From NCBI GenBank assembly GCA_963707025.1, contig CAVPOM010000015.1, positions 160,001 to 224,000 on the forward strand: a stretch of DNA of 64,000 bases, read 5' to 3'. Shown piece after piece: positions 21,697-56,076 of the stretch. The stretch's first letter is position 1, and each line of letters begins with the position of its first letter. Under the pieces are notes generated by a model. That model was not told the DNA's origin. It made no database searches and saw nothing but the letters and a program-made list of their open reading frames with translations. This DNA is from an uncultured Verrucomicrobiae bacterium (GTDB taxonomy: Bacteria > Verrucomicrobiota > Verrucomicrobiia > Limisphaerales > Palsa-1400). Both the position numbers and the translations under genes were made by a program.

Positions 21697-21720
21697 AATC
21701 CGCCATCCGCACTCCGCAAT
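21697..21720. repeat. Short heptamer tandem repeat (AATCCGC-like, 3 copies)
   Basis: aatccgc-catccgc-actccgc-aat between rpsI and argC; reverse-orientation relative at 13714-13734. Confidence 0.5.
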
Positions 21721-21724
21721 GGAA

Positions 21725-22120
21725 TTAACGCTTGCTGTACTGGAAGCGTTTGCGGGCGCCGGGCTGGCCGTACTTCTTGCGCTCTCTCATGCGGGGATCG
21801 CGGGTGAGACAGCCGGCGGTTTTCAGGACGGACCGCAGGGCGGCGTCCACATGCAACAAGGCGCGGGCGATGCCATGGCGCACGGCGCCGGCCTGCCCGG
21901 CCGGGCCGCCCCCGGCCACATTGACATGCACATCGTATTTGGCGGTGGATTCGGTGAGGGTCAGAGGTTGAGTGGCCGCGGTGCGGAGAGATTCCAGGCC
22001 GAAATAATGCTCAAAAGGCCGTCCGTTGATGACGATTTTTCCCGAGCCGGCCGCGAGGCGGACCCGGGCCACGGCGGTTTTGCGGCGTCCGGTGCCGCGG
22101 AATTCTTTGGTCTCTGCCAT
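21725..22120 (-). CDS. rpsI: 30S ribosomal protein S9
   Basis: [33 protein letters not shown]. Confidence 0.98.
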
Positions 22121-22147
22121 GATGAAAATTGGTTGAGGATTAGAAAA

Positions 22148-22582
22148 CTAGCTGGCCGGGGCCAGGGTGGCCGGTTGTTGAGCGGCATGCGGATGGGTGC
22201 CGCCTTTATAGACTTTGAGTTTGGTCATGAGGACCCGGCCGAGGCGGTTTTTCGGGACCATGCCCCGCACGGCATGGGTGATGAGTTTCTCCGGGTGGCG
22301 GGCGCGAACCTGGGCGACGGAGGTGTATTTCTCGCCGCCTTTCCAGCCGGAATAAGTCATGAATTCCTTGGCGGTTTCCTTTTTGCCAGTGAGGCGGACT
22401 TTCTCCGCATTGATCACGACGACGAAGTCGCCCGCGTCGAGGTGGGCGGTGTAAACGGGTTTGTTTTTCCCGCGCAGAATGTTGGCCACCTGGGCGGCCA
22501 GGCGGCCCAGGACGGCGCCATTGGCATCAATGACATGCCATTTGCGCTGATCCAAATTAACTTTAGGCAAATACGTTTTCAT
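22148..22582 (-). CDS. rplM: 50S ribosomal protein L13
   Basis: WHVIDA, LGRLA, LRGKNKP, GDFVVVINA, HPHAAQQP. Start at MKTY. Confidence 0.98.
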   Translation of the reverse strand: MKTYLPKVNLDQRKWHVIDANGAVLGRLAAQVANILRGKNKPVYTAHLDAGDFVVVINAEKVRLTGKKETAKEFMTYSGWKGGEKYTSVAQVRARHPEKLITHAVRGMVPKNRLGRVLMTKLKVYKGGTHPHAAQQPATLAPAS

Positions 22583-22607
22583 CCAAATAACCTTCCAAGG
22601 AGCGGTG

Positions 22608-22635
22608 AAACTACCAAAGACCGGCGCGAAGTCAA
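22608..22635 (-). promoter_or_regulatory. sigma70 promoter of the rplM operon
   Basis: Minus strand TTGACT-N16-TAGTTT with an extended -10 TG. Confidence 0.6.
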
Positions 22636-22690
22636 CAGGCAATTTTGGGGAATGCCACGGGCAAGGAGACGGGTTACCCGCCATCGCCCG

Positions 22691-25600
22691 TCAGGCCGGC
22701 AGCGCGGGAGGGGTGGGTTGGGGAGAACGGGCGGGAGCCTGGCCGCGCCGCCGCCAGGAGCGGACTTTGTCGCGGGCGTGTTCGAAGGCCAGATAGACCA
22801 CCGGGGTGGTGTAGAGGGTCAGCACCTGGGAAATGAGCAGGCCGCCCACGACGGAAATGCCCAGGGGCTGGCGAAGTTCGGAGCCGGCGCCCCGGCCCAA
22901 AGCCAGCGGGATGGAGCCACAAAAAGCAGCCAGGGTGGTCATCATGATTGGCCGGAAACGGATCACGCAGGCTTTGTAAATAGCGTCCTCGGGGCGGAGT
23001 TTTTCCTCCCGTTCGGCGACCAGGGCAAAGTCCACCATCATGATGGCGTTTTTCTTGACAATGCCCATGAGCAGAATGATGCCGATGAAGGAGACCAGGG
23101 AAAGGTCCAGGCCGAAGATCATGAGGGCGAGCAGGGCGCCCAGGCCGGCGGAAGGCAGGCTGGAAAGGATGGTCAGGGGATGGATGAGGCTTTCATAGAG
23201 CATGCCCAAAACGATATAGACGGCCAGGAGCGCCGCCGCCAGGAGGATGGGCAGCGAACTGAGGGAGGCCTGGAACACCTGGGCGGTCCCCTGGAAGCTG
23301 CCGGACACGGTGGCGGGCAGGCTCAACTCGCGCGCGGCTTGCCGGATCAGGTCGGTGGCCTGGCCGAGGGAGGTGCCGGGGTCCAGATTGAAGGAGATGG
23401 TGCTGGCGGGAAACTGGCCCTGGTGGTTGACGGAGAGGTAGGTGTTGGTGTCCTGGATTCTCGCCAGCGCGGCCAGCGGGACCATCCTTCCGGTAGCGGA
23501 CTTGACGAAGATTTTTTGCAGGGAATCGGGGCTTTGCAAGTAGGCCGGATCAACCTCGAGAACGACGTGGTGCTGGTTGTAGCGTTTATAGACGATGGAC
23601 ACCTGGCGCTGGCCGAAGGCATCGTAGAGGGTGTTATCAATCGCCTGGGGCGAAATGCCCAGGCGCGCGGCGGCATCGCGGTCCACGATGACGCTGGCTT
23701 GCAAACCGTGGTTTTGCTGGTCGCTGCTGACATCTTTGAGCTGGGGGATTTGTTTGAGTTTGCTGATGAGCAGGGGAGTCCAGTGATTGAGGTCGTCCAG
23801 GCTGGAGGATTGCAAGGCATACACGTACTGGCCCTTGGGCGTGCGTCCGCCCACATTGATGTCCTGGACGGCTCGAAGGTACAAGGTGGCGCCGGGGATG
23901 TGGGAGGTTTTTCTGCGCAGGCGGGCGATGATCTGATCGGCCGAGACTCTCCCCGGCCGCTGGTTGCGCGGTTTGAGGGTGATGAACATGCGCCCATTGT
24001 TGATAGTGCTGCCGCCGGCGGAAGCCCCGATGAAAGAGCCCAAGGTTTCCACCGCCTCGTCGGCCAACACGATCCGCGCCAACTGGTCCTGCAGCCGGGT
24101 CATGGCTTTGAAGGAAATATCCTGGGCGGCGTCGGTGGTGCCCATGATCGAGCCGGTATCCTGCTGGGGAAAGAAGCCCTTGGGAATTTCGGCATAGACA
24201 AAGAGGGTCACGACCAGGGTGATGACCGTGACGGCGAGCATCAACGCCTGGTGGCGCAGCACCCAGCGCAGGCCCCGGTCGTAAACGGCGAAAAGCCGGT
24301 TAAAGGCCCATTCGCTGGCCCGGTAAAAGGGGCCGGGTTTTCCATAAGAGGCCTGCGATTTCAAAAAGCGCGAGCAGAGCATCGGGGTCAACGTCAGGGA
24401 GATGACCCCGGAGACCAGGATGGCCAGGCTCAAGGTGACGGCAAATTCATGGAAGAGACGGCCAATCAACCCGCCCATGAAGAGCAGGGGAATGAAGACG
24501 GCCACCAGCGAAGTGCTCATGGAAACGACGGTGAAACCAATCTGGCGCGCGCCGGTCAGCGCCGAAGCCATGGGCTTTTCCCCGTGCTCCACATGCCGGT
24601 AAATGTTCTCGATCACGACGATGGCGTCATCCACCACAAAGCCGACGGAGATGGTGATGGCCATGAGGGACAGATTATCCAGGCTGTAATGCAGCAGGTA
24701 CATGAAGGCGAAGGTGCCGGAGAGGGCGAGCGGAATGCTGATGCTGGCGATGAAGGTCGGCCAGAAGCGGCGCAAAAACAGAAAAATCACCAGCACCACC
24801 AGGATGACGCTCAAGAACAGGGAAATCTGCACATCATTGACCGAGGTGTGAATGGTAATGGTCCGGTCGGAGGTGATGAGGATCTTCACCGCCGGCGGAA
24901 TCCAAAGTTTAATTTGGGGCAGGACGGTGCGAATGCGGTCCACCGTCTCGATGACGTTGGCATCGGGTTGTTTGAAAACCAGGAGGATGACGGCGGGCTT
25001 GGTGCCGACCCAGCCGGCGATGAGGTCGTTCTCCACCCCATCCACAATGTTGCCCAGGCTGCTCAGGCGGATGGGCACGCCGTTGGATTGGGTGAGGATG
25101 AGCGAGTGATAATCCTTGGCCTCGAAAACTTGGTCGTTGCTGGCCAGGGCATAAAACAAATTGCTGTCTTCCACGCTGCCTTTGGGGGAATCCACATTGA
25201 CTTTGCCGATCAAGGCGCGAACATCCTCCAGGCTCAGGCCGGTGGTGGAGAGTTGGGCGGGGTTGATCTGGACCCGCACGGCTGATTTCTCCGCGCCGGT
25301 GACGATAACCTGGCTGACCCCTTCCACCTGGCTGAGGCGCTGGCCGACAATTTCATCAGCCACTTCAAAGACCTGGGTGGGCAGGAGGCTGTCGGACACC
25401 ATGCCCATGATGAGAATGGGGGCATCGGCTGGATTGACCTTGCGGTAGGTGGGCGGACCGGGGAGGTTCAGGGGCAGTTCACTGGAGGAGGCGTTGATGG
25501 CGGCCTGGACATCGCGGGCCGCGCCGTCCACGGGGCGGTTCAAATCAAATTGCAGGGTGATGCTACAGCCGCCCAGGGTGCTGACGGAGGTCATTTCATT

Positions 25601-26041: not shown

Positions 26042-27874
26042 ATGAAAATGATTCGTCTGCCTTCGCGCCTGCGAAACGGCTTTTTTGCAATCTGCCTCCT
26101 CCTGGCCTCAGCCTTCGGCACTTTTGCACAGTCATCCATCAGCAACTCTCTCCCCATCGTCACCATTCAGGCGACGGTTCCCATCGCCACTTGGGCCGGC
26201 CAGGATGGCGTGTTCACGGTCTTTCGCTACGGCAATCCAACCCCGTCGCTTCTGGTCTATTATTGCATCAGCGGCACGGCCTCCAACGGGGTGGATTACC
26301 AGAAGATCGGGAACATCCTGCTGCTCTCCAACGGGGTCATGTCAAATTCCATCGCCATCGAACCCATTAATCTCGGGCAGAGCAACCTTGAGACGGTGAC
26401 CGTGACCCTGTGCCCCTCGCCGCTGATGAATCCGGTGAACTACCTCATTGGCCCTCCGGACCATGCCAGTGCGACCGTTTATATCCTGCCGCCAAACATC
26501 ACCAACGTTCCGCCGGCGGTGAACATCGTCAACCCAACCAACGGCGCGACCTTTTGCGCGCCGGCCAACATCCCGCTGGTGGCAGACGCCAGTGACGTGG
26601 ACGGCACGGTCACGAATGTGGAGTTTTTCGCCGGGACCAATGACCTGGGTCGGGGCCTTATGGTGGTTCTCGACCCGCCAGGCGCCAACGGAGTGACTGG
26701 GCCGGTTTACTTCCTGAACTGGCTCAATGTGGCGGCAAGTAATTATTCGCTGACAGCGGTGGCGACCGACAACGGCGGCGCTTCGACCACATCGGCGGTG
26801 GTGAACATCACCGTCCTGGCGGTTCCGCCCACTAATCTTCCGCCCGTCGTCCGCATCATCAATCCGCCCAATGGCAGCGTCTTCCGCGCCCCGGTCAACA
26901 TTCCCATTTTCGCTTACGCTGCCGATCCCGACGGCTCTGTTAGTTCCGTGGAATTCTTCGCCGGCACCAATAGTCTGGGCCTGGGCCATCAGGTCACCGC
27001 CGTGCCTCCGCCGCTGCCTCCCGGCCCGATCCAGCCGCCCATCCTGATCTATGTTCCAACAAATTATTGGGAACTGGTTTGGAGCAATGCCCCTTTGGAA
27101 ACCAATATCGCCTTGACGGCCCTGGCCACTGATAATGGCGGCGCCACCACCGTTTCCGCGGCGGTGACGATCAGCATTCTGCCCTCGCCCCCGCCGCCCA
27201 GCAACCGGCCGCCCATTGTCACTATCGTCGCCACCGATCCCGTGGCCATCGAAGGCACCAATTTCTGGTTCTGGCCGGGCGAAACCAATACGCCGCCAAC
27301 CTGGGCGGCTTGGCCGGCGGCGACCTGCCGTTTCTTCACCAACTGGGGTCCCAAAGCCGCCACCATGACCGTGCGCCGCTGGGGCGGCACCAATGCCGGC
27401 TTGACGGTGCCCTACGCCATTGGCGGCACGGCCAGCAACGGCGTGGACTACGTCGCCATTCCGGGTGTGGTGACCATTCCGGCGGGGGATCGCAGCGCGG
27501 TGATCACCATCATGCCCATTGACGACGGCCCGCCCGACATCACCAAGACCGTCATCCTCAGCCTGACGCCTTCGACCAACACCCCGCCGGATTATCTGCT
27601 GGGTTTCCCGAGGCGCGCCGCGGCGATTATACTTGACAGCAGCGGCCTTCCTCCCGTGACCGCCCTGCTGCCCGACCGGTGTTTTCACCTGGTCATGCCG
27701 GGGCCGGACGCCGCCTGGTTTAGCCTCGAGTATTCGACCGACCTGGCCAACTGGACGGCCATCTGCACCAACCAGGTGGTCAATGGCTCGATTAATTTCG
27801 TGGATCCTGACACGCTGAGCGACCAGGCCCGATACTATCGCGCCGTCCCGATCACTACTCCGCCGCCTCAATGA
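26042..27874 (+). CDS. Secreted Calx-beta / bacterial Ig-like repeat protein with a conserved C-terminal domain
   Basis: Signal peptide ending SAFGTFA; two GTASNGVDY Calx-beta-like units; two Ig units (NxPPxVxI...DxDGxVxxVEFFAGTN...ATDNGGA); C-terminal LEYSTDLANW...RYYRAVP. Confidence 0.85.
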   Translation: MKMIRLPSRLRNGFFAICLLLASAFGTFAQSSISNSLPIVTIQATVPIATWAGQDGVFTVFRYGNPTPSLLVYYCISGTASNGVDYQKIGNILLLSNGVMSNSIAIEPINLGQSNLETVTVTLCPSPLMNPVNYLIGPPDHASATVYILPPNITNVPPAVNIVNPTNGATFCAPANIPLVADASDVDGTVTNVEFFAGTNDLGRGLMVVLDPPGANGVTGPVYFLNWLNVAASNYSLTAVATDNGGASTTSAVVNITVLAVPPTNLPPVVRIINPPNGSVFRAPVNIPIFAYAADPDGSVSSVEFFAGTNSLGLGHQVTAVPPPLPPGPIQPPILIYVPTNYWELVWSNAPLETNIALTALATDNGGATTVSAAVTISILPSPPPPSNRPPIVTIVATDPVAIEGTNFWFWPGETNTPPTWAAWPAATCRFFTNWGPKAATMTVRRWGGTNAGLTVPYAIGGTASNGVDYVAIPGVVTIPAGDRSAVITIMPIDDGPPDITKTVILSLTPSTNTPPDYLLGFPRRAAAIILDSSGLPPVTALLPDRCFHLVMPGPDAAWFSLEYSTDLANWTAICTNQVVNGSINFVDPDTLSDQARYYRAVPITTPPPQ

Positions 27875-32744: not shown

Positions 32745-33542
32745 TCATGGTGAGTGCCCCAGACCGGGTTCATGCCAGTTGGCGGGCTTGGGTTGGGTGC
32801 CTTCGACGGACGGACCGCTTCGGAACGTGGATTCCCGGATGATCAACTCACTGATCAACGCCGAGGCGCTGGCATACCGGGTAAAACCGCCCGGCGGGAC
32901 AAACAGTTCCGGGGCCGGCAAATCCAAGCGGATGCCCGAGAAATCCACCGTGATCAACCGGCCCCCGCTCTCCGTGCGCAGGCGCACGGGAAACCGGTTC
33001 AAATCGTCGGCCCGCCATTCGGTCAATTTGGCGGTCGAACCGTCGCTCAATGCCACCCTCTCTTCGATGCGATGACAGGGATGGCCGTTGACCTGCTCGG
33101 GAACCGGCTCTTTGTTCTCCGGCGCCACGTTAGTGATCTCGGAAGCAGCGGAAATGGGCGCGAACCCCTGCAGCGCCTCGCTCACCACATAGCCGTGCTG
33201 GGCAACGCCGTCCCAAATAAAAAACATCCCGCCCCGCACGATTTTGCCCTTCTTCACCTTGGCGGTGCTGAGCGGTTGGAAGATCAGCCGGCCCTGCCGC
33301 TCGATCAATTGGCCGGCCGCCTCGGGCGCGCCTGGGGCGGACGGGGTGGTGGCGACGACATCGGCGCTGAAACCGTCGAAACCGGCCAGGGCAGTCGAAG
33401 CCGGGCCGGTGAGGAAGTCCGGCGGCGCTTCGTCGCCCATGTGAGCCAGGGCGGCCTCCTTGCGTTGCTCGCTGGCGCATCCCGCGAGCAACGCGGCCGC
33501 CAAAGCGATCCCCAAAGCCCCTGTGCCAGGCAAATTTCTCAT
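32745..33542 (-). CDS. Putative lipoprotein (DUF4412/LolA-like beta-rich domain)
   Basis: MRNLPG...LLAGC lipobox; EQVNGHPCHR and PELFVPPGGF segments resemble DUF4412-like proteins (recognised by eye). Confidence 0.65.
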   Translation of the reverse strand: MRNLPGTGALGIALAAALLAGCASEQRKEAALAHMGDEAPPDFLTGPASTALAGFDGFSADVVATTPSAPGAPEAAGQLIERQGRLIFQPLSTAKVKKGKIVRGGMFFIWDGVAQHGYVVSEALQGFAPISAASEITNVAPENKEPVPEQVNGHPCHRIEERVALSDGSTAKLTEWRADDLNRFPVRLRTESGGRLITVDFSGIRLDLPAPELFVPPGGFTRYASASALISELIIRESTFRSGPSVEGTQPKPANWHEPGLGHSP

Positions 33543-33698
33543 TGCAACACCCCAATTTGACCGGAAACCACAAATGTCGCAAGGAGCATTGTGGGTCCCA
33601 TCCCCGATTCCCCACCTCGGCCTCATGAAGCCAAACCTCCCGCGAGTTGTGTCCGTCCAGTTCAGCAAATGGTTCATCGTGGCCTGCCGGGTAAAACG

Positions 33699-33747
33699 CG
33701 GCGGCGCAGGCTGCCAGCCGCCAGCTCGCTGGGCGTCCCGCCCGGTG
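33699..33747. repeat. REP-like double-hairpin element
   Basis: gcaggctgccagccgc and ctgggcgtcccgcccgg hairpins in the divergent intergenic region before argA. Confidence 0.45.
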
Positions 33748-33893
33748 TGCGCGGCTCTGCCCTCGTGCTTCCCTTTAACATTCCTTGCCCGCCATCGGCT
33801 TTTGGCGGCGGCGGGCGCATTTTGCATTTTGCATTTCCCCCGTCCCCTGATAACAATGCCCAATCCGAAAACCGGAATCTTGACATCTGACTT

Positions 33894-35177
33894 GTGAAAC
33901 TGACCGATCTGCGGGAAATCCTGCAATACATACCGCGCTTCCGCGAAAAGATTTTCGTCATCAGCATTGATGGGGCGATCGTGACCAGCGAGAATTTTGC
34001 CAATATCCTCCTGGATGTGGCGGTGTTGCGCTCGCTCAATATCCGCGTGGCGCTGGTCCACGGGGCGGCGGCGCAGATCAGCGCCCTGGCGGGCGAGCAA
34101 AAAATCCAGCCGTCCAATCTCGACGGCACCGGGGTCACCGACGCCGCCACGCTCAAGCTGGCCCTGACCGCGGCCAACCGCCTGACGCATGAAATCCTGG
34201 AGGGCTTGAGCGCCAATGACCTGCGCGCCGCCTCTTGCAACGCCCTCATCGCCCATCCCCTGGGCATCCTTCACGGCGTGGACCATTTGTTCACGGGCAA
34301 GGTGGAGCGGGTGGACGTGGAGATGTTGCAAGGGTTGCTCGCCCAGGGGATCGTCCCGGTCATGCCGCCCCTGGGTTTTGACGGCGACGGCAGGACTTTC
34401 CGCGTCAATTCGGATTCGGTGGCGCTGGAACTGGCCAAGGCCTTGAACGCCGCCAAGCTCATTTACATGGCCACCCAGGACGGGCTGATCTGTCAGGGCC
34501 GGTTGATCCGCCAAATGCTGGTGGCGGACCTGGACGCGCTGCTGGCCCAGCACAAAAATAATTTCGCGCCGGAAATTCTTTCCAAGGCGCAGCACGCCTC
34601 CGCCGCCTGCCGCGCCGGCGTGCCCCGCGTCCACGTCCTCAACGGCCGGGTGGATGAGGCCCTGCTGGCGGAGGTCTTTTCCAACGAGGGCATCGGCACC
34701 CTCATTTACGCCAATGAATACCAGCAGATCCGCCGCGCCATGAAGAAGGACGTCCGCGCCATCCTGTTGTTGACCAAGGACTCGGTGGAGACCGAGGAAC
34801 TGGTCCGGCGCAGCCGCGCCACCATCGAAAAATCCCTCGCCGATTTTTATATCTTTGAGACGGACAAGAATCCGGTGGCGTGCGTGGCCCTGCATCAATT
34901 GGACCAGACCAGAGCGGAGCTGGCCTGCCTCTACGTCAGTCCGTTGCATGAGAACCAGGGCATTGGCCAGAAACTCATTCAATTTGTCGAGAACAAGGCG
35001 CGCGATCTGGGCATGACCGAGTTGCTCGTGCTTTCCACCCAGGCCTTCACCTATTTTCAGTCCAAGGGCGGGTTCGCTGAAGGGTCGCCGGAGGATTTGC
35101 CGCCCCCGCGACGGGAAAAGTACGAGCAGAGCGGCCGAAACTCCAAGGTGCTGGTAAAAAAACTCGCGCCCAAATGA
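33894..35177 (+). CDS. argA: Amino-acid N-acetyltransferase (N-acetylglutamate synthase; AAK + GNAT domains)
   Basis: QYIPRFREKIFVISIDG, LVHGA, GVPRVHVLNG, ELACLYV...NQGIG. Confidence 0.92.
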   Translation: MKLTDLREILQYIPRFREKIFVISIDGAIVTSENFANILLDVAVLRSLNIRVALVHGAAAQISALAGEQKIQPSNLDGTGVTDAATLKLALTAANRLTHEILEGLSANDLRAASCNALIAHPLGILHGVDHLFTGKVERVDVEMLQGLLAQGIVPVMPPLGFDGDGRTFRVNSDSVALELAKALNAAKLIYMATQDGLICQGRLIRQMLVADLDALLAQHKNNFAPEILSKAQHASAACRAGVPRVHVLNGRVDEALLAEVFSNEGIGTLIYANEYQQIRRAMKKDVRAILLLTKDSVETEELVRRSRATIEKSLADFYIFETDKNPVACVALHQLDQTRAELACLYVSPLHENQGIGQKLIQFVENKARDLGMTELLVLSTQAFTYFQSKGGFAEGSPEDLPPPRREKYEQSGRNSKVLVKKLAPK

Positions 35178-40905: not shown

Positions 40906-43221
40906 ATGATAAGGACGGTTCGAGTTTCCATTCTAGTGACAGCTTTGGCCCTGGCCGGCGCGCGCCTCCCGGAGGCCCGGGCGCAAGGCAATGAGATCAT
41001 TTATTCCAACAGCTTGCAAAATGGGTGGGCCAATTGGAGTTGGGCGACCAATAATTTAAGCTGCACCAGTCCCGTCCTTCCGGGCTATTCCGACTCGATC
41101 AGCGTCTCCTGCAGTAATAACACCGCCCTCTATTTGCATCAGGCCCCTTCGGATTCGACGCCCTTCACCAACCTGACCTTTTGGCTCAATGGCGGGACCT
41201 CCGGCCATCAGGTCCTGACGGTGACAGGTACGCTCAGTGAGACTCACCAGACCCTTTATACCCTGCCGGCCCTGGTCGCCAACACCTGGCAGCAATTTAC
41301 CGTTTCCCTTGCGTCCTTGGGCGTGGCCGGCCAGCCCAACTTTGACGGCATTTGGATCTGGAACGACAACAATTTCACCATCCCGACCTTTTATGTCGAG
41401 GACATCGTCCTGGTGGCCGGGCCGCCGCCGGGGCCGAACCCGACTAATTTTATTGGAATTGACGCCGGCGCCAATCGCAAGCCGATCAGTCCGCAGATTT
41501 ACGGCACTGCCTTTGCCACCTCCAATCAACTGGCCGATTTGAATTTCACCATGAACCGGTCGGGCGGGAATGAAGAAACGACCTATAATTGGGAGATCAA
41601 CGCCCACGGCAAGGGCGCCGATTGGTATTTTGAGAGTTATCCCGACAGTTCCGCCACACCCGGGGAGTCGGCGGACTCGGTTGTGGCCAACAGCAAGAGC
41701 GGCGGAGCACAGCCGATGATCACCATCCCCATGATCGGCTGGTCGCCCATGCTCGGGGCCGGCCGGAGCATCCTCTACAGCTATGCCGTGAGCAACTACG
41801 GCCCGCAAACCTCCGTGGACCCGTACCTGACCAATGCCGGCAACGGCATCAGCATCACCAACGACACGCCCATCACCTGGAACAATCCCAACGACGCCAA
41901 TTTCCCCACCAACATCGCCTTTCAGCAGGGCTATGTGCAGCATCTCCTGGGCCGGTGGGGGGCGTCCACCAACGGGGGTGTCGGCTATTACCTCATGGAC
42001 AACGAGCACAGCATTTGGTTTTCCACCCACCAGGACATCCATCCCGTCGGGCCAACCATGCAGGAAATCTGGACCAAAATGCTCGCCGCGGCCAGCATGG
42101 TCAAATCCAACGACCCCAACGCGCTCGTGCTCGGTCCGGAAGAATGGGGCTGGCCGGGTTATTTCTACAGCGGCTACGACCAGCAATGGTCCGGTCAACA
42201 CTCGGATTACAACCCGGCCGACTATCCCGACCGCTCCAGCAACGGCGGGTGGGATTACATGCCCTGGCTGCTCAGCCAGTTTTATCAGCACAACACCAAT
42301 TCCGGGCAGCGCCTGCTGGATTACTTCACGCTGCATTGCTATCCGCAGGAAGGCGACGTGGGCAGCCAAGACGACGTCTCCACCACGACGGCCCTGCTGC
42401 GCAACCAGTCCACCCGCCAGTTCTGGGATTCCAACTATGTGGACCCGAGTTGGATCAACAGCGTCATCATGCTCATCCCCCGGATGAAAGGCTGGGTTTC
42501 GACCAATTATCCCGGCACCAAAATCGGCATCACCGAATACAACTGGGGCGCCGAGCCTTACCTCAACGGCGCCACCGCCCAGGCCGACCTTCTGGGAATC
42601 TTCGGACGCCAGGGATTGGACCTGGCCACACGCTGGACGACCCCCGCCAACACCACGCCGACTTACCTGGCCATGAAAATGTATCGCAATTACGACGGCA
42701 ACCGCTCCGCCTTCGGCGACACCAGCCTGCTGGCGGGCGGGCCGGATCCCGACAATGTCGCGGTCTTCGCGGCCCAGCGTTCCACCGACGAGGCCCTGAC
42801 GGTCATGGTGGTCAGCAAGTACTTGACGGGCACGACGCCGCTGGCCGTCAACCTCACCAACTTCCTGGGCAACGGCACCGCCCAAGTCTGGCAGCTCAAC
42901 GCCAGCAATGTCATCGCCCGCCTGGGCGATTTGACCTGGAGCAACGGCGCCTTGCAAACGACCGTGCCCGGCCAAAGCGTCACCCTGCTGGTTCTACCGC
43001 CCAGTTCCGCGCTGGCCCTCGTGCCCGGAGCGCCGCGGACCGACGGGCAATTCGAATTCTGGGTCAACGGGGAAATTGGACGCAGCTTTGTCTTGCAATC
43101 CTCCACCAACCTTTTGCGCTGGACCCCCGCCAGCACCAACACCTTTGCGGGCGCCAGCGCCCGTTTTCTGCTTCCCGGCGGCTCGCGCCCTCAATTCTGC
43201 CGCGCCGTGCTCTCGCATTGA
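40906..43221 (+). CDS. Secreted GH44 endoglucanase/xyloglucanase with an N-terminal CBM-like domain and a conserved C-terminal domain
   Basis: Signal peptide ending PEARA; NRSGGNEETTYNWE, MDNEHSIW..THQDIHP, ITEYNWG (two catalytic Glu); C-terminal LQSSTNLLRW...FCRAV. Confidence 0.9.
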   Translation: MIRTVRVSILVTALALAGARLPEARAQGNEIIYSNSLQNGWANWSWATNNLSCTSPVLPGYSDSISVSCSNNTALYLHQAPSDSTPFTNLTFWLNGGTSGHQVLTVTGTLSETHQTLYTLPALVANTWQQFTVSLASLGVAGQPNFDGIWIWNDNNFTIPTFYVEDIVLVAGPPPGPNPTNFIGIDAGANRKPISPQIYGTAFATSNQLADLNFTMNRSGGNEETTYNWEINAHGKGADWYFESYPDSSATPGESADSVVANSKSGGAQPMITIPMIGWSPMLGAGRSILYSYAVSNYGPQTSVDPYLTNAGNGISITNDTPITWNNPNDANFPTNIAFQQGYVQHLLGRWGASTNGGVGYYLMDNEHSIWFSTHQDIHPVGPTMQEIWTKMLAAASMVKSNDPNALVLGPEEWGWPGYFYSGYDQQWSGQHSDYNPADYPDRSSNGGWDYMPWLLSQFYQHNTNSGQRLLDYFTLHCYPQEGDVGSQDDVSTTTALLRNQSTRQFWDSNYVDPSWINSVIMLIPRMKGWVSTNYPGTKIGITEYNWGAEPYLNGATAQADLLGIFGRQGLDLATRWTTPANTTPTYLAMKMYRNYDGNRSAFGDTSLLAGGPDPDNVAVFAAQRSTDEALTVMVVSKYLTGTTPLAVNLTNFLGNGTAQVWQLNASNVIARLGDLTWSNGALQTTVPGQSVTLLVLPPSSALALVPGAPRTDGQFEFWVNGEIGRSFVLQSSTNLLRWTPASTNTFAGASARFLLPGGSRPQFCRAVLSH

Positions 43222-45149: not shown

Positions 45150-47285
45150 TCAATTCTTTCTCCCGGGGGTTGGCCCCTGGCTCTGGCAGAGGCCCTGGCC
45201 GGACCGATGCACCGAACAGACGACCCGGGTGCCGCCGCCGGCCTCCCTCTGCACAGCGAAGGATCCGCCGATCATTCCCATGCGGTAACGCATGATGCGC
45301 AAGCCCATGCCTGCCTTCCGGCCGTTCCGGGCCGGGATGCCCGCCCCATCGTCTTTTACCGCCAGATTAATGCGTTCCGGCGTCTTGCTCAGGATGATCT
45401 CAATCCGCCCGGATTTGCCATGCTTGACGGCGTTGGTAATGGCCTCCTGGGCGATCCGGTAGAGGTGCGTCGCGACCGCGTTGTCCTCAATCAAGACCGG
45501 TCGCCGGCAGGAGAAACGGCATTGGACGCGGAACATGGTTTTGGTGCGCGCGGCCAGTGATTTCAGGGCTGCCATCAGGCCGTTGGATTCCGGTTCCACG
45601 GGATGCAGGCCGCGGGCCAGGTCGCGGGTCTGCGCGATGGCCTCGTAGATCACCTTGAGGATTCTGCCCAATTGCCGGGCTTCCGGCAGGCCCTTGGCGG
45701 CCAGGTTCATTTGCAGCGTATTGGTCATGTAAGCCGTGCCCGCCAGAAGCTGGCCCAGTCCGTCATGGATGTCATGGGCGATGCGATAGTGTTCCTGCTC
45801 GCTGATTTGCAGGATTTCCTTTTCCATCGCGATGCGGTCCGTGATGTCCCTCACAAAAACGGAGGAATACCGGAACTGGCCGTCGCTCCAGAACGAATTG
45901 GCGTCCACCAACACGATGCGGATCGCGCCATTCTTGCACCGCAGCGGCATGCGAAAGTTGCGCACCGTCTCCTGGGCCGCCAGCCGCTGCAACAACTCCT
46001 GGCCCTGGGACGGTTCCACGCTGAACTCGTTGAAGAAATGTCCCAGGTATTCCTCAGCCGGGCAGCCCAGCAGGTCCAGTTGCGCCTGATTGGCGCGCAG
46101 GATGGCGCCGCTGGCCGACAACCAGACCAGGCCGATGGGCGCCAGATTGAAGAAACTGGAGAGGGTGCGTTCGCTGGCGCGCAGGGCTTGTTCCGCCTCT
46201 TTGCGCGCGGTCAGGTCGGAAATCGCCGTCAGGGCAAAGGAAATGTCGTCGCTGACCTGGCTCAGGAGGCTCAATTCGCTTTCATCAAAGGAACCCGCGC
46301 GCGACGCATAGACTTGAAAGGAGCCCGTCACCCTGCCCGCGATCCGGATGGGAAACGCCGCCACATAAAACAGCCCGAACTTCATGGCCCGGTCGTGCCA
46401 TGGGGCCATGCTGGCGTCATGGTCAATATCCTCGATCACGACAGGCTGGTTTTTGCGGATGGCCGTGCCGACCGGCCCGCCCCCTTCCAGCTCGTCGCGC
46501 GCCACCACCCGGATGCCCTCAAGATATCCGGTCGCGCCGGCCTGCGCCACCGGTTGCACCGATCCGTCCGGCGAGACCATGCCGATCCAGGCCAGTTTGA
46601 AACCGCCGCTTTCCACGGCCACCCGGCAAATCTCATTGAGCAGTTTCTGCTGGTCGGGCACATGGACAATGGCGCGATCCACTCCGCCCAGGATGGCCCG
46701 CACCCGGTTGAGTTGGGCGATTCGTTCCTCCGCCCGCTTGCGTTCGGTGATGTCCGTGACGCTGGCCCGGCATTGCTTCCTGGGACTGGCCTTGTCGCGC
46801 ATCGCCTCGGCATGGACGAACAGCCGTTTGCCCTGCGCATTGACCAGGTCCAGCTCCACGCTCTGCCGCGCCTTCGCGCTGAACACCTGGCGGCAAAACA
46901 AATAAAACGCGTCCTGCCCTTCCGCCGGGACGAAGCGGGAGAACTTTTGCTGGATCAACCGGCCGCGTTCCAGACCGAGCAATTCACCGGCACTCACATT
47001 GGCTTCCAGAATCTCGCCTTGCCCGCCCAAGGTGAGGTGGGCCACCGGCGCAAAATTGTAGAGGTCGGCATAGCGATCCATCGCTTGCTGCAATTCCTGC
47101 TGCGTCCGGCGCAGTTCGTCATTCTGCATCTCCAGCTCGATCTGGTGGACTTGCAGTTCGTGCATCACCTTCTGCGCGTCATCCACCGGCATCTGCGCCA
47201 CTTCGCGCCGCGTCAGGGCCATCAACTGTTCCGCGCGGGCGCGCAGTCTTCCGGGAGAGACGGAAGGTTTGCGGTGCGCCTTCAT
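45150..47285 (-). CDS. Cytoplasmic PAS-GAF-PAS sensor histidine kinase (HisKA_3)
   Basis: HELQVHQIELEMQN coiled coil; two PAS domains ending DITE/DITD; GAF; RIAHDIHDGLGQ; EAITNAVKH; DDGAG; GMGL. Confidence 0.9.
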   Translation of the reverse strand: MKAHRKPSVSPGRLRARAEQLMALTRREVAQMPVDDAQKVMHELQVHQIELEMQNDELRRTQQELQQAMDRYADLYNFAPVAHLTLGGQGEILEANVSAGELLGLERGRLIQQKFSRFVPAEGQDAFYLFCRQVFSAKARQSVELDLVNAQGKRLFVHAEAMRDKASPRKQCRASVTDITERKRAEERIAQLNRVRAILGGVDRAIVHVPDQQKLLNEICRVAVESGGFKLAWIGMVSPDGSVQPVAQAGATGYLEGIRVVARDELEGGGPVGTAIRKNQPVVIEDIDHDASMAPWHDRAMKFGLFYVAAFPIRIAGRVTGSFQVYASRAGSFDESELSLLSQVSDDISFALTAISDLTARKEAEQALRASERTLSSFFNLAPIGLVWLSASGAILRANQAQLDLLGCPAEEYLGHFFNEFSVEPSQGQELLQRLAAQETVRNFRMPLRCKNGAIRIVLVDANSFWSDGQFRYSSVFVRDITDRIAMEKEILQISEQEHYRIAHDIHDGLGQLLAGTAYMTNTLQMNLAAKGLPEARQLGRILKVIYEAIAQTRDLARGLHPVEPESNGLMAALKSLAARTKTMFRVQCRFSCRRPVLIEDNAVATHLYRIAQEAITNAVKHGKSGRIEIILSKTPERINLAVKDDGAGIPARNGRKAGMGLRIMRYRMGMIGGSFAVQREAGGGTRVVCSVHRSGQGLCQSQGPTPGRKN

Positions 47286-50200
47286 GCCGGCGCCCCCTTT
47301 CCACGGCGGCGCGGCTTCTTTTCCGCTGGCGGTCCGGCGGTTTTATCTTCAAAGGCCAGCAGAATCATTTCCGGCACGCCCGGCTCCCGCTTCAGCCGCC
47401 GCGCATTCAAGAGCAGCGTGCGGCGCCCCAGGCCGGGGAAATCCTGCTCCACCTTGAAATCCTGGAAGCTGGCGTTGCGCGGCAAAATTTCTTCGAGCAG
47501 TTTGCGCAGGGCGGGGAGGTTCCATTGTCCGCCGCCCAGTTCGTAAATCAACTGGCGCTCCACTTTGCGGGCGGTCGTTTTGAAGGTGTGATAGAACGCC
47601 GGATTGGCCGAAACCACGCAGAGGTTTTCGTCGAGCACGAGCAAGGATTCGCGCACGGTGGCGACGATGCTCTCGGCGTAGGTCCGGGCTTGCTGGGCCG
47701 CCCGCTCGGCCAGCTTCAGCCGGTTGATGTCCACGAACGTCACCACCAGCCCGTCAATCACATTTTCCGTCGTGCGATAAGGCGAGATGCGCACCAGCCG
47801 CCACTCGCCCTGGCGCGTCCGCACCTCCTTTTCCTTGAATCCCAGCTTGCCCAGCACCTCGGCGGCGTCGGCCTGGAGCTGGTCGTATTGGAGATTGGAA
47901 GCCAGGTCGCCGATGGGCCGGCCCACGTCCGAATGGATGAGCTTGACCAGCTTGGTGGCCTCGGCGGTGAAGCGCTTGATGTGCAGTTTCTGATCCAGAA
48001 AAATGGTGGCAATGCTCGTGCTGTTGAGCAGGTTCTGCATGTCGTCGTTGGCCTGCGACAGGTTGTCCAGCTTGCCCTGCAACTGGGCATTGACCGTCTG
48101 CAATTCCTCGTTGAGCGACTGCATCTCCTCCTTGGACGTTTCCAGCTCCTCGTTGGCGCTCTGCAATTCTTCGTTGGTGGACTGCAGCTCTTCGTTGGTG
48201 GATTTCAATTCTTCGTTGGAAGTCTGCAACTCCTCCACCGTTCTCTGCAAGGTCTCCCGGGTGTAGCGCAACTCCCGCTCCAATTCGGGGGCGCCGCCCG
48301 GCAGCGGCCTGGCCGGATGACGCGGCGCTTTGCCGGCCGGCCGCTTCACCACCGGCTCGGTCCGGAAGGTCACCAGAAACAAGCCGCGCACCGCTTCCGG
48401 ATCGGTCAGCTTGGCCACGGTCAGCCGCACCGCGGCAAAACCGCCGTTGGTTTTGACCCGCAGGGCTTCGTGGACCACCTCGCCCTTTTGCGCCGCCGCC
48501 TGGCGCAGCGCCGCGGGCAGTTCCAGGCGCAACCCTTCGCGCGCCATTTCCAGAATGTTCCAACGCGGCTGGCCGGTGGCCGGTTCCAGATAATCGCCCG
48601 TGCGCCCGTGGATATGGAGGATGTCGCCGCGATCGTTGACGATGACGCTGGCCGGCGCGTAGCGCGTCAGCAGCACTTTCTCGACCATCGTGGAGAGAAG
48701 CTGCTTGGGCGGGTGTTCCACCGCGTCGGCTGGGCTGCCGGGGCCGCGCTGGCCGGGGCTGCCGCCGCGGTGAATTCAGGAGGCAAGGCATGACCCGCCC
48801 CGGCCTCCTGGCGCGCAAAGATTTTCCATTTCTTGTTCATAAAGGCGAAGTGGCCGCTCAGACCGGTGATGCTCTCGGACGATCCCAAAAACAGGATCCC
48901 CCCCGGATTCAGCGCGTAATGGAACAAGGAGAGAAGCCGCACCTGGGCGGCGGGTTTGAGGTAAATCAGCAAATTGCGGCAGGCGACCAGATCCAGCCTG
49001 GTGAACGGCGGATCTTTCAAAACATTCTGGGGCGCGAACACGACCATCTCGCGAATCTCCTTCTTGATGCGGCAGGCGCCATCCTCCTTGAGGAAGAACC
49101 GCGCCAGCCGTTCCGGGCTCATATCGCCGGCGATGCCCTCCGGGTAAGCCCCGGCGCGCGCGGTGTCAATGGATTCGTGGTCCAAATCCGTCCCGAAAAT
49201 CTGCACCGGAAAATGCCGCTTCAGCTTGTCCATCCCCTCCTGCAACACCATCGCCAGGGAATAGGCCTCCTCGCCGGACGAACAACCCGCCACCCACACC
49301 CGCACCGGCGCGTCCTCCGGGTGGCCGGCCAGCAGCGCGGGCACGGCCGTTTTGGCCAGCGCGGTGAAGGCTTCCGCGTCGCGGAAAAAGCTGGTCACAC
49401 CGATGAGCAATTCCTTGAACAGCAGGTCCAGCTCATGGGGATTTTCCTGCAACAGGCGCAGGTATTGCTCGGGACCTTTTAATTGATGCATGTTGACCCG
49501 CCGTTCGATGCGCCGGCGGATGGTGTGGGCTTTATAGAAGAAGAAATCGTGCCCGGCGCGCGCGCGCAACAAGACGAGGATTTTCTGCATCGGTTCGGGA
49601 AGCACCTCCGCGCCGCCAGGCCCGCTTTGGCTCGCAGCCAGATACCGCCCCCGGGTGGAGGCGGCCAGTTGTTCGGGCAGCCGTTCCGCCGGCAAAATGT
49701 AATCCACCAGCCCCGTGGCGATGGCGCTGGAGGGCATCCCGGAATACCTGGCCGAGTCCGGCGCCTGGGCCATGGTCATCCCGCTGGCGCCTTTGATGGC
49801 TCTCAGACCCAGCGTGCCGTCCGTGCCCGTGCCGGAGAGCACAATGCCGATGGCCTTCTCCTTCTGGTCCTCGGCCAGCGAATGGAAAAAATAATCAATC
49901 GGCAGCCGCAATAAACCCGGTTCGTCCAGCTCCATGACGTGCAGCGCGCCGTGGAGAATGGCCAGGTAGCCGTCCGGCAGCGACATGTAAACCGCGTTGG
50001 GTTCCACCGCCATGCCGTCGGCCGCGTGCCGCACCGGCATGCGCGTGCATTTGCCCAGCAACTCCGGCAGCAAACTGACGTGACCGGGATGCAGGTGCGT
50101 GACCACGACAAACGCCATGCCGCAATCGGCGGGCACGTGCAAAAAGAATTTCTCCAGCGCTTCCAGTCCGCCGGCCGACGCCCCCAGGCCGACGATGGGA

Positions 50201-52907: not shown

Positions 52908-54113
52908 TCAAGGCGCCGTCAGGCGGAAGAAGGAGTTGGCGCTCGATTCGGGAAGGATCACCTCGCATTGACAGTTGACGAGTTCCGGCACGTTGGTCAC
53001 ATTGCTCCAGGTCGCCCCGTTCGAGGTCGGGTTGTATTGGAGCCTGTAGCCTGCGGCGGCGGATGGCCAGGTGAGAACCACCGTATTGGTGCCGGTGATG
53101 GCGATCCCCAGAGAGGGCTGCGGCGCAAATTGGACATTGAGCGTTTCCCAGTAGATTTGGTAGTATTGACCCTGGCCGCTGGAATAGGTGGCGTCATAAT
53201 TGATGTTCTGGGAAACGTGGAAGATGCCGTGGGGGCGGCCCGGGGTTGTGCCCCAGGAATTGACCATAATCCAGGTTGGTCCGGCCGGATCCGTGTCGTC
53301 GTAACCCACACAGAGCGCGGCATGCGCGCCGCCGGAGGAGGTCCACCGCCCGCCGCAATCGAAATTGGTCCATTGGGCGCTTTCAGGCTGATTCTCCCAA
53401 AAATCATCAAAATTATTCCAGTCCGTTTCGGTTGGCATGTAGAAGGCGAACCAAACGGCCATGTTCTGGTTCAAAACGGCTTTGATGTTGGCGATGGCCT
53501 GGGCCTGGCTGACGCCCCAGGTGGGAATGGTGGTCGCGGACACGCTGAGGATGGGAAATTGCGGCGCGGTGGCGATGCTGCCGCAGGCGGCGCCGCCTTC
53601 TCCTGAGCTGCTGGACCAGACTCCGTTGGTGTTGTTCCAAGGAACGGCAAAGCCTTCGTAGGAGTAGAATTGCGCCACGTTAGCCAGCCAGCCACCGTCG
53701 CAGAGATTGACGAAGGGGTTGCAGGAATTGAGCAACTGCACCGACAGCCGGCTGGCCACCCCGTTCTGGACGTTATGCGCAATCTCCATCACCCCCGTGC
53801 CTGCCCACGCCCAGCAATTTCCGCACTCCCCCTGGTCGCGATCCGCGGGAATATAGGGCAGCCAGGAGAGCAGGCTCAGGGAGGGCGGGTAGTTCGGGAG
53901 GAGGATGGTACCGACCGGCACGTTTGGCGTGGCCTCGGCCTTGAGGTGGCTGACCAACATTTGTGTCATCTGATCCGGGGTCAGTCGCATCAAGGGGTGG
54001 CGCCCGGACGCGGCAGGCTGGGCGGATAGGGCCGTCACACAAACCGCTGTCAAACAGGAGAAGATGATCGCCTTGGCCCGGAGGGAGGCGCCGCGTTGTC
54101 CGAATTGAATCAA
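52908..54113 (-). CDS. Secreted papain-family (C1A) cysteine peptidase with a conserved C-terminal domain; start uncertain
   Basis: Signal ending VTALSA; DQGECGNCWAW, GAHAALCVGYDD, VNSWG; C-terminal VLTWP...YRLQY...W...FFRL. Confidence 0.9.
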   Translation of the reverse strand: MIQFGQRGASLRAKAIIFSCLTAVCVTALSAQPAASGRHPLMRLTPDQMTQMLVSHLKAEATPNVPVGTILLPNYPPSLSLLSWLPYIPADRDQGECGNCWAWAGTGVMEIAHNVQNGVASRLSVQLLNSCNPFVNLCDGGWLANVAQFYSYEGFAVPWNNTNGVWSSSSGEGGAACGSIATAPQFPILSVSATTIPTWGVSQAQAIANIKAVLNQNMAVWFAFYMPTETDWNNFDDFWENQPESAQWTNFDCGGRWTSSGGAHAALCVGYDDTDPAGPTWIMVNSWGTTPGRPHGIFHVSQNINYDATYSSGQGQYYQIYWETLNVQFAPQPSLGIAITGTNTVVLTWPSAAAGYRLQYNPTSNGATWSNVTNVPELVNCQCEVILPESSANSFFRLTAP

Positions 54114-54698
54114 GTTTTTAATCCAGTGTAAGTGTTGAAGTTTCCATCGTGCCAGGTGGCAACCAGCGCGTCTCTTAAGCGATCAGGCCGGCAAAACCGG
54201 CCACCGGAGCCTTTCGATGAGGACGCCCTGCTGCCGCACCGGCGCCGTCGGGCTTGTCGTTCCGTCCGAAAGAATCCTCCACTTTGGTCCGTTGCCCGTT
54301 GGGCTTTACCGGCGCGGTCCAGGCGGGGCGGTTGGGCATCGTGTCAATCGTCCCGATCCTTGGGAAAGGCAGCGCTGGTTGCGAAAAACAAGGTCCAAGG
54401 TTATTAAGTCCAAACATAATTCCATCAAGTCACTAATTCCCGGCACGACCCGCCTCAACGTGTCCCATTTTCGGACGATGTGTCTCATTTTAAACAACTT
54501 CGACAGATAAGCATGTTACGTGCCTATTGCAAGTGCGAAATCCATGGGAGTCGCTGCGGTCCAGCTCAGGAGGCTATTGAAAGTTGTAATCATCTGAAAG
54601 CAATTGACTTACGACATAAAAAGCATGTGACCGATCTGGAAACAGGATGGGCGCAGCATGGGAAATGCGACCTTTCAGCCCTTTCTTCGCGCAAGTAA

Positions 54699-54776
54699 GA
54701 TGCGGACGATATCATCCAGGCCATTCGTGACGTTCCCGAGCGCCATATTTACGCCGGTGAAGAAGTCCTGGAGAGC
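54699..54776 (+). pseudogene. Fragment of a NarL-type response regulator (end of REC domain and linker)
   Basis: Start-less frame DADDIIQAIRDVPERHIYAGEEVLES resembles PEELIRAIRQVFSNQIYVSEEVSE of the regulator at 44477-45148. Confidence 0.45.
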
Positions 54777-54963
54777 ACCCAGGCGGGCGGCGAAGCAGGC
54801 CTGCCGAGGAGGAAGCTCGCCCGCAGGATCATCCCGCCGGACACAATCAGGGGCTGTGAAGCGGGATTATTCAGGGTTATGGCCATATAACAAAAGCAGC
54901 CTGATTTCATACCCGGGAGTGAGACCAGATTGGGTCCGGTTGATTTTGGAGCGGAGGCGTCAT

Positions 54964-56076
54964 TTACGATCGGGACGCGCCCATGAATTGGCGAATGACG
55001 GCGACCACATAGTCCGCCTGGGCATCGGTCAGTTCCGGATAGATGGGCAGCGGGAGAATTTTGCGGGAGATTTGTTCAGCGACCGGAAAATCACCGGAGC
55101 GAAAGCCCAAATCGGCATAGACTTTTTGGAGGTGAAGCGGCAGCGGATAATAGATGAGCGTGGCCACGCCCTGGTCGGCGAGGTGTTTTTGCAGGGCGTC
55201 GCGCTCTTCGCTGAGAACGGCATAGACGTGGAAGACATGCGTGTTGCCAGGGGCGGTGAGGGCAAGCTGGAGGGGAAGATCCCGCAAGCCGGCGGTGTAG
55301 CGGCGGGCGATGGCCACGCGGCGTTCGTTCCAGAGGCGCAAGTGCGGGAGTTTGACGCGCAGAATCGCCGCTTGCAACTCGTCCAGGCGGCTGTTGTAGC
55401 CGTGCAAGTCGTGGTAATAACGCCGCTCCATCCCATGCACGCGCAACATGCGCAAGGTGCGGGCCAGCGCCTCATCGCTTGTCACCACCATGCCGCCGTC
55501 CCCGCCGGCACCCAGATTCTTGGTCGGGTAAAAACTGAAGCAACCGAGCCGCCCGAATTGTCCGACCGGCTGGCCGGCAAAGGTCGCGCCAATGGCCTGG
55601 GCGCAATCTTCCACCAGAGCCAGGCCGTGCTTTTGGGCCAGGGCCTGAAGTTCCGCCAGAGGCGCAGCCTGTCCAAAAAGATGGACGGGAATAATGGCCC
55701 GTGTCCGCGAGGTGATTCTGCGGGCCACGTCAGCAGGGGAAATTTGAAAGGTGGCGGCATCAATGTCCGCAAAGACCAGGCGCGCGCCGACCTGGCAAAT
55801 GGATTCCGCCGGGGCGATGTAAGTGAAGGGTGTGGTGATGACTTCATCGCCCGGCCCGATGTCCAGGGCGCGCAGGGCCAGAGTGAGGGCGTCGGAACCG
55901 GAATTCACGCCAATGCCGAACTTGGTTTGAGTCAAGGCGGCGATCTCCTGTTCCAAGGCGGCGACATTGGGACCGAGGATATAATGGCCGCCGGCCAAAG
56001 CGCGTTGGACCACCGGCAAAAGCTCCGCCTGCAGCGACTGGTATTGCGCGGCCAGGTTTAAGAACGGGACGTTCAT
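54964..56076 (-). CDS. DegT/DnrJ/EryC1/StrS-family sugar aminotransferase
   Basis: VNSGSDAL, PVHLFGQ, EDCAQA, SFYPTKNLG, GYNSRLDELQAA. Confidence 0.93.
   Translation of the reverse strand: MNVPFLNLAAQYQSLQAELLPVVQRALAGGHYILGPNVAALEQEIAALTQTKFGIGVNSGSDALTLALRALDIGPGDEVITTPFTYIAPAESICQVGARLVFADIDAATFQISPADVARRITSRTRAIIPVHLFGQAAPLAELQALAQKHGLALVEDCAQAIGATFAGQPVGQFGRLGCFSFYPTKNLGAGGDGGMVVTSDEALARTLRMLRVHGMERRYYHDLHGYNSRLDELQAAILRVKLPHLRLWNERRVAIARRYTAGLRDLPLQLALTAPGNTHVFHVYAVLSEERDALQKHLADQGVATLIYYPLPLHLQKVYADLGFRSGDFPVAEQISRKILPLPIYPELTDAQADYVVAVIRQFMGASRS

Follow-up and report, generated by a model that had tools for sequence, protein, structure and literature searches.

Known systems

The described systems closest to the domain reported here are C-terminal sorting signals of secreted proteins and the fibronectin-III (Fn3) domains of two pectate lyases. 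The type A C-terminal domain (CTD) from type IX secretion systems (T9SS; PF18962, TIGR04183) is a small beta-sandwich found on more than 100 unrelated Sec cargo proteins. PEP-CTERM, GlyGly-CTERM and CFI-box-CTERM are C-terminal paralogous families, many-to-one, that are exchanged on homologous cargo and pair a membrane helix with a processing enzyme. In other phyla, dockerin, SLH and choline-binding modules serve as surface-retention modules. GlyGly-CTERM co-occurs with the broad type II secretion system (T2SS), a case in which caution about such patterns is advised (PMC3237569). The pectate lyases PelI and Pel3 are T2SS substrates. Loops of their Fn3 domain act as secretion signals recognized by GspC/GspD and, according to PMC7949064, this Fn3 signal alone is not enough for secretion. 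The same paper presents the choice of folded substrates by the T2SS as an open question (PMC7949064).

The domain described here, referred to as the tail, resembles the T9SS CTD in being a small (predicted) beta-sandwich on more than 100 unrelated Sec cargo proteins of the same families, and in occupying the same slot on homologues of a C1A protease. It differs from the CTD in motif and, by its predicted structure, in fold class, and in occurring also N-terminally and in arrays. Like the CTERM families, the tail is a many-to-one C-terminal paralogous family exchanged on homologous cargo, but it is a soluble folded domain rather than a membrane helix with a processing enzyme. With PelI and Pel3 it appears to share the Fn3 fold. 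In those enzymes, however, the Fn3 domain is seven-stranded, N-terminal, confined to one protein family and part of a composite signal.

Three window proteins end in the same domain

The window is the whole 64-kb stretch of DNA that was analysed, and the genome to which it belongs is labelled G000 (88% complete). The tail-bearing genes of the window and their tails are as follows.

26042..27874, plus strand: secreted protein with Ig (Big_7 x2) and Calx-beta domains; 610 aa if read from 26042, the likely ATG
27653..27874, plus strand: tail A, a ~70-aa predicted six-strand Fn3-like domain without strand G, with an invariant Trp, a YYR strand and a Pro-rich end
40906..43221, plus strand: secreted GH44 glycoside hydrolase, 771 aa, signal peptide
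43015..43221, plus strand: tail B, residues 704-771, with six strands in a model from GH44 orthologues alone
52908..54113, minus strand: secreted papain-family (C1A) protease, 401 aa, signal peptide
52908..53117, minus strand: tail C, a divergent family member at the C-terminus of the C1A protease

All three proteins begin with a Sec-type signal peptide followed by Gln, as judged from reading the sequence and a heuristic; the signal peptide of the protein at 26042..27874 is ~29 aa long. The Pfam bodies of the three proteins are unrelated (Big_7 and Calx-beta; GH44; Peptidase_C1). The first-pass annotation had claimed that these secreted proteins, with their unrelated bodies, share one terminal pattern, and this claim holds. 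All of the motifs that it quoted are present, and an HMM of 133 genome domains, from which the window's own tails and three close paralogues had been withheld, recovers tail A (E 2.2e-9), tail B (E 3.8e-7) and tail C (E 8.2e-5) against 61,200 ORFs. No fourth tail was found in the window by this HMM. Two details had to be corrected. The start given for the first tail, 27676, is one base out of frame; 27677 is in frame, and the domain starts near 27653. The aromatic-aromatic-Arg strand was placed at the extreme C-terminus and actually lies 10, 5 and 4 residues before the stop in the three tails. All three tails belong to a single uncatalogued family of ~70 residues.

Long window ORFs without a Pfam match at E 0.1 lie at 21719-25285 (plus), 45603-47546 (plus), 54658-56061 (plus) and 32745-34982 (minus). 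Some of these could be shadow frames, with the real gene on the opposite strand.

A large family within the genome

An HMM built from the three window tails was iterated over the 61,200 six-frame ORFs of G000, with position ignored. It identified 139 domains in 131 ORFs at E < 0.001 (145 ORFs at E < 0.05), and reversed ORFs gave no match below E 3. The domain lies within 15 residues of the stop in 120 of the 131 ORFs, near the N-terminus in 6 and internally in 5. Of the 111 tails in which an FYR-type motif could be scored, 83 have its end 4-5 residues ahead of the stop; the pattern was not matched in 9 tails. The conserved columns are a Leu (83%), a Trp (99%) and Arg-Phe-Tyr-Arg (55/83/78/75%).

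A signal peptide was called in 91/120 tail genes versus 1197/2907 others by a loose heuristic that allows starts within 60 codons. At the automatically called start alone, the counts are 37/120 versus 697/2907, and this enrichment is slight because the start calls are poor. The expectation that an HMM would return many C-terminal matches on signal-peptide proteins was thus borne out, on the loose heuristic. Abundant internal copies had been named as a finding that would speak against a sorting signal. Terminal copies predominate, yet N-terminal and internal copies (11/131) and tandem arrays do exist. The earlier argument that the tail lacks a membrane anchor and hence is not PEP-CTERM also stands: a hydrophobic helix occurs in the last 45 aa of 1/120 tail proteins versus 205/2907 others.

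The cargo is diverse. The 64 of 131 tail proteins that were scanned include BspA leucine-rich repeat (LRR) proteins, S8 and C1 peptidases, glycoside hydrolases of families GH2, 28, 44, 53 and 76, IgGFc-binding, Calx-beta and Ig-like repeat proteins, and beta-propellers. None of these 64 carries a Por tail, a PEP-CTERM or an autotransporter domain, and none of 15 PEP-CTERM-like pattern matches in G000 overlaps with a tail protein.

Is the domain already catalogued? Of 73 tails, none gave a convincing match in Pfam or NCBIfam, and no family there takes more than two of them at E 0.1. No Pfam family is common to the 30 nearest ESM Atlas clusters; the three of them listed are mostly from Verrucomicrobiota. 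No description of the domain appeared among the papers listed in searches of the open literature. That the family exists, is biased to the C-terminus and is new to the databases is firm.

Other regularities were seen at the two ends of the tail proteins. The predicted mature N-terminus is Gln in 57/120 tail proteins versus 349/2907 others, a control that is not limited to secreted proteins. This Gln can be likened to the pyroglutamate "Q-rule" of Bacteroidota. Of 126 G000 tail proteins, 74% have Pro or Gln at the last position, versus 17% of 2907 others; in tail proteins of G089, a genome of another class, the count is only 5/17, so the ending is not kept there. IgGFc-binding-type proteins with an internal copy adjoin BspA-type LRR proteins with a terminal copy, a two-gene unit that recurs in four places of G000.

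L004:1594-3732: IgGFc-binding/BspA-LRR two-gene unit
L016:301-2070: IgGFc-binding/BspA-LRR two-gene unit
L018:3347-5044: IgGFc-binding/BspA-LRR two-gene unit
L002:8716-9585: IgGFc-binding/BspA-LRR two-gene unit

The C-terminal slot on homologous cargo

The tail is kept at the C-terminus of 117/120 GH44 homologues. Median identity among them is 50% in the tail versus 75% in the catalytic part, and S733, W739 and R766 are invariant in 81 aligned orthologues. Homologues of the C1A protease carry the tail in 12/120 cases. Of the other 108, 17 were scanned: CFI-box-CTERM stands at the end of two, above cut-off, and an FlgD-Ig domain resembling the PorZ C-terminus at the end of one. The end of one further homologue looks PEF-CTERM-like by eye, and many C1A homologues end in unrelated domains. 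Since CFI-box-CTERM and FlgD-Ig ends are found at this position, the tail occupies the slot used for sorting signals in other lineages.

Predicted fold

The model of tail A has six strands (pLDDT 87.7). Six strands are likewise predicted for tail B, modelled inside the whole GH44 protein with only the 81 orthologues as input; the sixth ends at residue 770 of 771. A structural search with the tail returned fibronectin-III domains throughout, aligned on their first six strands, at a middling Z of 6-7 (best 7.1). Strands A-B-C-C'-E-F superpose on those of PDB 3MPC and 2GEE with Z 6.5-6.7 and an rmsd of 3.0 over 68 residues, and a two-sheet sandwich (A-B-E / C'-C-F) is seen in the predicted models. 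The tail profile also picks up true bacterial Fn3 repeats. The tail differs from Fn3 (PF00041), however, in having no strand G, in having no PF00041 match and in being almost always terminal. The F-G turn motif was found in 0/139 G000 domains versus 62/646 domains in 12 of the top 150 library matches. Six strands, the Fn3 matches and the missing F-G turn motif therefore point to an Fn3 derivative without strand G. In other words, the tail is predicted to be a six-strand fibronectin-III sandwich lacking its last strand, and we infer from the models that strand F (R-F-Y-R) may be a free edge for a partner.

The best Foldseek rows were the Fn3 domain of Pel3/PelI (TMq 0.61-0.66), not significant at E 0.06, and no row matched at E 0.001. 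In the structural ranking the Pel3 Fn3 domain stands at rank 14 (Z 6.4), tied with dozens of other Fn3 domains, so that the match shows no special kinship.

The terminal beta-domain had been compared with the T9SS CTD in the first-pass annotation. One explanation is accordingly a divergent T9SS CTD, which would fit the shared slot and the same kinds of cargo. This comparison is not upheld by the fold, which is predicted to be fibronectin III, or by the sequence profiles, in which 0/73 tails match Por_Secre_tail or TIGR04183 at E 0.1. Neither the T9SS CTD nor a discoidin domain is among the top fold rows listed, an absence that does not by itself exclude the CTD. SprA and Por tail had no match in G000, 88% complete, in a search in which the control genomes were likewise silent. 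A divergent T9SS CTD is extremely improbable.

A carbohydrate-binding module of the F5/8 type C or CBM32 kind was considered and rejected. The chitosanase-associated binding domain 2rv9, also named CBM32, shows a weak partial sequence likeness (E 3.4e-5, profile positions 4-50). This partial match stands alone: only 1-2 of 73 tails have weak Pfam matches to such modules, and the modules fit the tail model poorly (TMq <=0.42).

Could the tail simply be a structural end without a partner? A degenerate Fn3 domain spread by domain shuffling might cap the protein, guarding its C-terminus or aiding its folding, or act as a spacer. The clear homology to Fn3 repeats and the Pro/Gln ending in G000 would suit such a role. 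Against it, an Fn3 domain without strand G is unlikely as a stabiliser, the motif residues are invariant while the adjoining linker domains vary, and the Pro/Gln ending does not hold in G089. A partnerless end-cap is therefore very unlikely.

Distribution across genomes

The tail was found in 59/60 other genomes of the same order, mostly with tens to more than 99 matches each. Across the phylum, 128/301 genomes including G000 bear the tail, as counted from the best 20 or fewer candidates per genome with a profile biased to G000. The distribution is patchy by family (f20 0/47, f27 0/23, f6 2/23, f4 19/21). In the outgroup phylum, sampled around a record labelled Pyrinomonadaceae, 6/151 genomes have 1-2 matches each, some of them true Fn3. 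These counts agree with the earlier proposal that the expansion is lineage-restricted. Among close relatives of tail A, the labels Verrucomicrobiota and Limisphaerales predominate, and no tail match was found in plasmids searched with tail A. A library search marks a large unannotated family, with 88,352 clusters at 50% identity as an upper bound that includes some true Fn3. Records labelled Bifidobacteriaceae (L212, G364) and Acidoferrum (L191, G365) carry 133 and 151 tails, respectively, and are probably mislabelled Verrucomicrobiota.

G089 has 19 tails, 17 of them C-terminal, and an HMM made from these 19 alone finds 46 G000 domains, 43 of them C-terminal. The 20 copies in five low-copy genomes fall into 11 no more than 15 residues from the stop, 2 that end in the motif behind an insertion, and 7 at N-terminal or internal positions. 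Among the top library matches, tandem arrays reach 11 copies, and the last copy is terminal in 132/150 multi-copy proteins.

The tandem arrays and the ~8% of N-terminal or internal copies would be compatible with a surface-binding role. Cargo would in that case leave the cell by the T2SS through signals of its own, and the tail would hold it at the surface by binding a glycan, LPS or a scaffold protein. Arrays and non-terminal copies suit an avidity module; the conserved aromatics and Arg (W 99%, F 83%, Y 78%, R 75%) and the weak likeness to 2rv9 suit a binding site, and the co-occurrence with the T2SS described below would be explained too. Single copies at a near-fixed distance from the stop are nevertheless the rule, the last copy of an array is usually the terminal one, and the F5/8-type modules fit poorly. 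Surface retention is a rather unlikely explanation, though one to be taken seriously.

Secretion machinery of tail-bearing genomes

G000 has five secretin loci: three GspD-type, one PilQ-like and one Amuc_1098-like. The three GspD-type loci carry gspE/F/G/K genes, and two of the three gspD genes are each split into two ORFs.

L062:8835-11137: split gspD, two overlapping ORFs
L061:6170-9245: split gspD, two overlapping ORFs

Other split genes lie at C14:143-147 kb and C16:1-4 kb; such splits may stem from frameshifts in the assembly and not from real decay. At L064:8760-19239 (G000:C6:134765-145238), pilN/O/P-like genes and the PilQ-like secretin are directly followed by two tail-ended NHL-propeller proteins, which are candidate tip adhesins or dedicated cargo. 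Three exosortase loci are present. No autotransporter was found in G000 in a search whose positive control worked. TIGR02597 had no match in G000, and the control was likewise silent.

Machinery genes were compared between two sets of 40 genomes, the first with and the second without the tail. The presence of any secretin does not separate the two sets and was rejected as a marker (40/40 versus 37/40). GspK was found in 40/40 versus 23/40 genomes, exosortase in 40/40 versus 29/40, and a FadL-family barrel in 27/40 versus 5/40. On an extended panel, which leaves out 7 tail-bearing and 53 tail-less genomes, GspK was present in 117/120 tail-bearing versus 63/120 tail-less genomes; in reduced genomes many export genes disappear together, and related genomes are not independent, which limits this comparison. 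Every tested genome with at least three tails has GspK. The two differ together in family f6, where G081 has both tail and GspK versus a GspK count of 0/22 in genus g6, and in family f9 (G300 versus G048). The GspK-less tail-bearers are G063 (one borderline tail), G282 (which has a GspD with an N0 domain) and G070 (two C-terminal tails, no GspK or GspD-N0 match). Because GspK scores lie near the threshold in families f20 and f27, GspK may have been missed in some of their genomes that were counted as lacking it. The GspK counts fit a tail that depends on the T2SS, but the link between GspK and the tail is not specific: exosortase shows a similar pattern, so that patterns of this sort arise easily. 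G307, the sole tail-less genome of the 60 in the order, had been predicted to lack the T2SS; the prediction failed, as the T2SS is kept.

The first-pass annotation had proposed an undescribed export pathway. A dedicated, unrecognised outer-membrane machine or shuttle could be a PorV-like FadL-family barrel or a TPR-secretin (Amuc_1098-like) system. A FadL-family barrel is common to G000 and G089 and enriched in tail-bearers, and the two tail genes behind the PilQ-like secretin would also fit. As an obligatory shuttle the barrel was rejected, since it was not found in 13/40 tail-bearing genomes including the closed G197 and G177, and the TPR-secretin fails as a separator, being also present in the tail-less genus g6. 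No dedicated envelope gene emerged among the 906 reciprocal best hits of G000 and G089, a between-class BLAST comparison of low sensitivity that misses fast-evolving envelope genes. The 35 envelope candidates scanned among these hits are known families or cargo, except for 3 without a Pfam match. No shared machine was seen among the listed 1.5-kb flanks of 20 tail genes in the five low-copy genomes. The annotation's new pathway thus gives way to a known machine, the T2SS, as the best candidate, and a dedicated machine is improbable.

How, then, might the tail work? With no autotransporter and three GspD/GspK loci in G000, elimination of routes leads to the T2SS. Since other routes are eliminated, GspK co-occurs with the tail and PelI offers a precedent, the T2SS is the single best mechanism. 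We tentatively propose, on sequence comparisons and somewhat short of an even chance, that the truncated-Fn3 tail is a folded export tag read by a GspD-type T2SS. Tail-bearing cargo would be exported by Sec and would then fold in the periplasm; the tail would be recognized by parts of the T2SS, GspC/GspD or the pseudopilus tip, and the cargo would pass through the secretin.

Several results weigh against the T2SS tag. The T2SS is not sufficient, as 63 tail-less genomes, including G307, keep GspK. G070 has tails without GspK or GspD-N0, and two of the three gspD genes of G000 are split. The Pel3 fold match is not significant, and the Fn3 signal of these enzymes is insufficient by itself according to PMC7949064. 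Copies are N-terminal or internal in 11/131 proteins here and in 7/20 copies of the low-copy genomes, and arrays occur. A complex prediction of tail A with N0-N1 of its own GspD scored 0.00 twice, with controls that were not folded, and weighs neither for nor against the tag. A stronger form of the proposal is doubtful: by the models, the strand-G-less Fn3 domain might be a portable T2SS address label whose free R-F-Y-R edge is completed by a strand of the machine, enough to route any Sec-exported protein. When a T2SS tag, surface retention and a dedicated machine are taken jointly, it is very likely that the tail serves export or surface sorting in one way or another.

Significance

We know of no common label for T2SS substrates. 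A domain on more than 100 cargo proteins per genome makes substrate choice by the T2SS testable. If the stronger form of the proposal, a portable address label, holds, the T2SS would for the first time have a modular signal that can be recognised from sequence, and the tail would define the secretome of a major phylum of soils and seas. Whatever the mechanism, the tail HMM predicts which enzymes and adhesins are exported in Limisphaerales, Kiritimatiellae and other Verrucomicrobiota.

A second C-terminal family

A second C-terminal family of ~120 aa, Gly-rich and beta-like, ends eight G000 ORFs, none of which has the main tail. It was not found in G089.

C4:763954-769503: second-family ORF
C18:398134-400080: second-family ORF
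C4:472381-475428: second-family ORF
C7:244572-248450: second-family ORF
C18:552475-556218: second-family ORF
C9:156961-159147: second-family ORF
C14:139709-141754: second-family ORF
C7:508894-509133: second-family ORF

One of these ORFs lies downstream of the Amuc_1098-like secretin operon, and the family could be a parallel tag.
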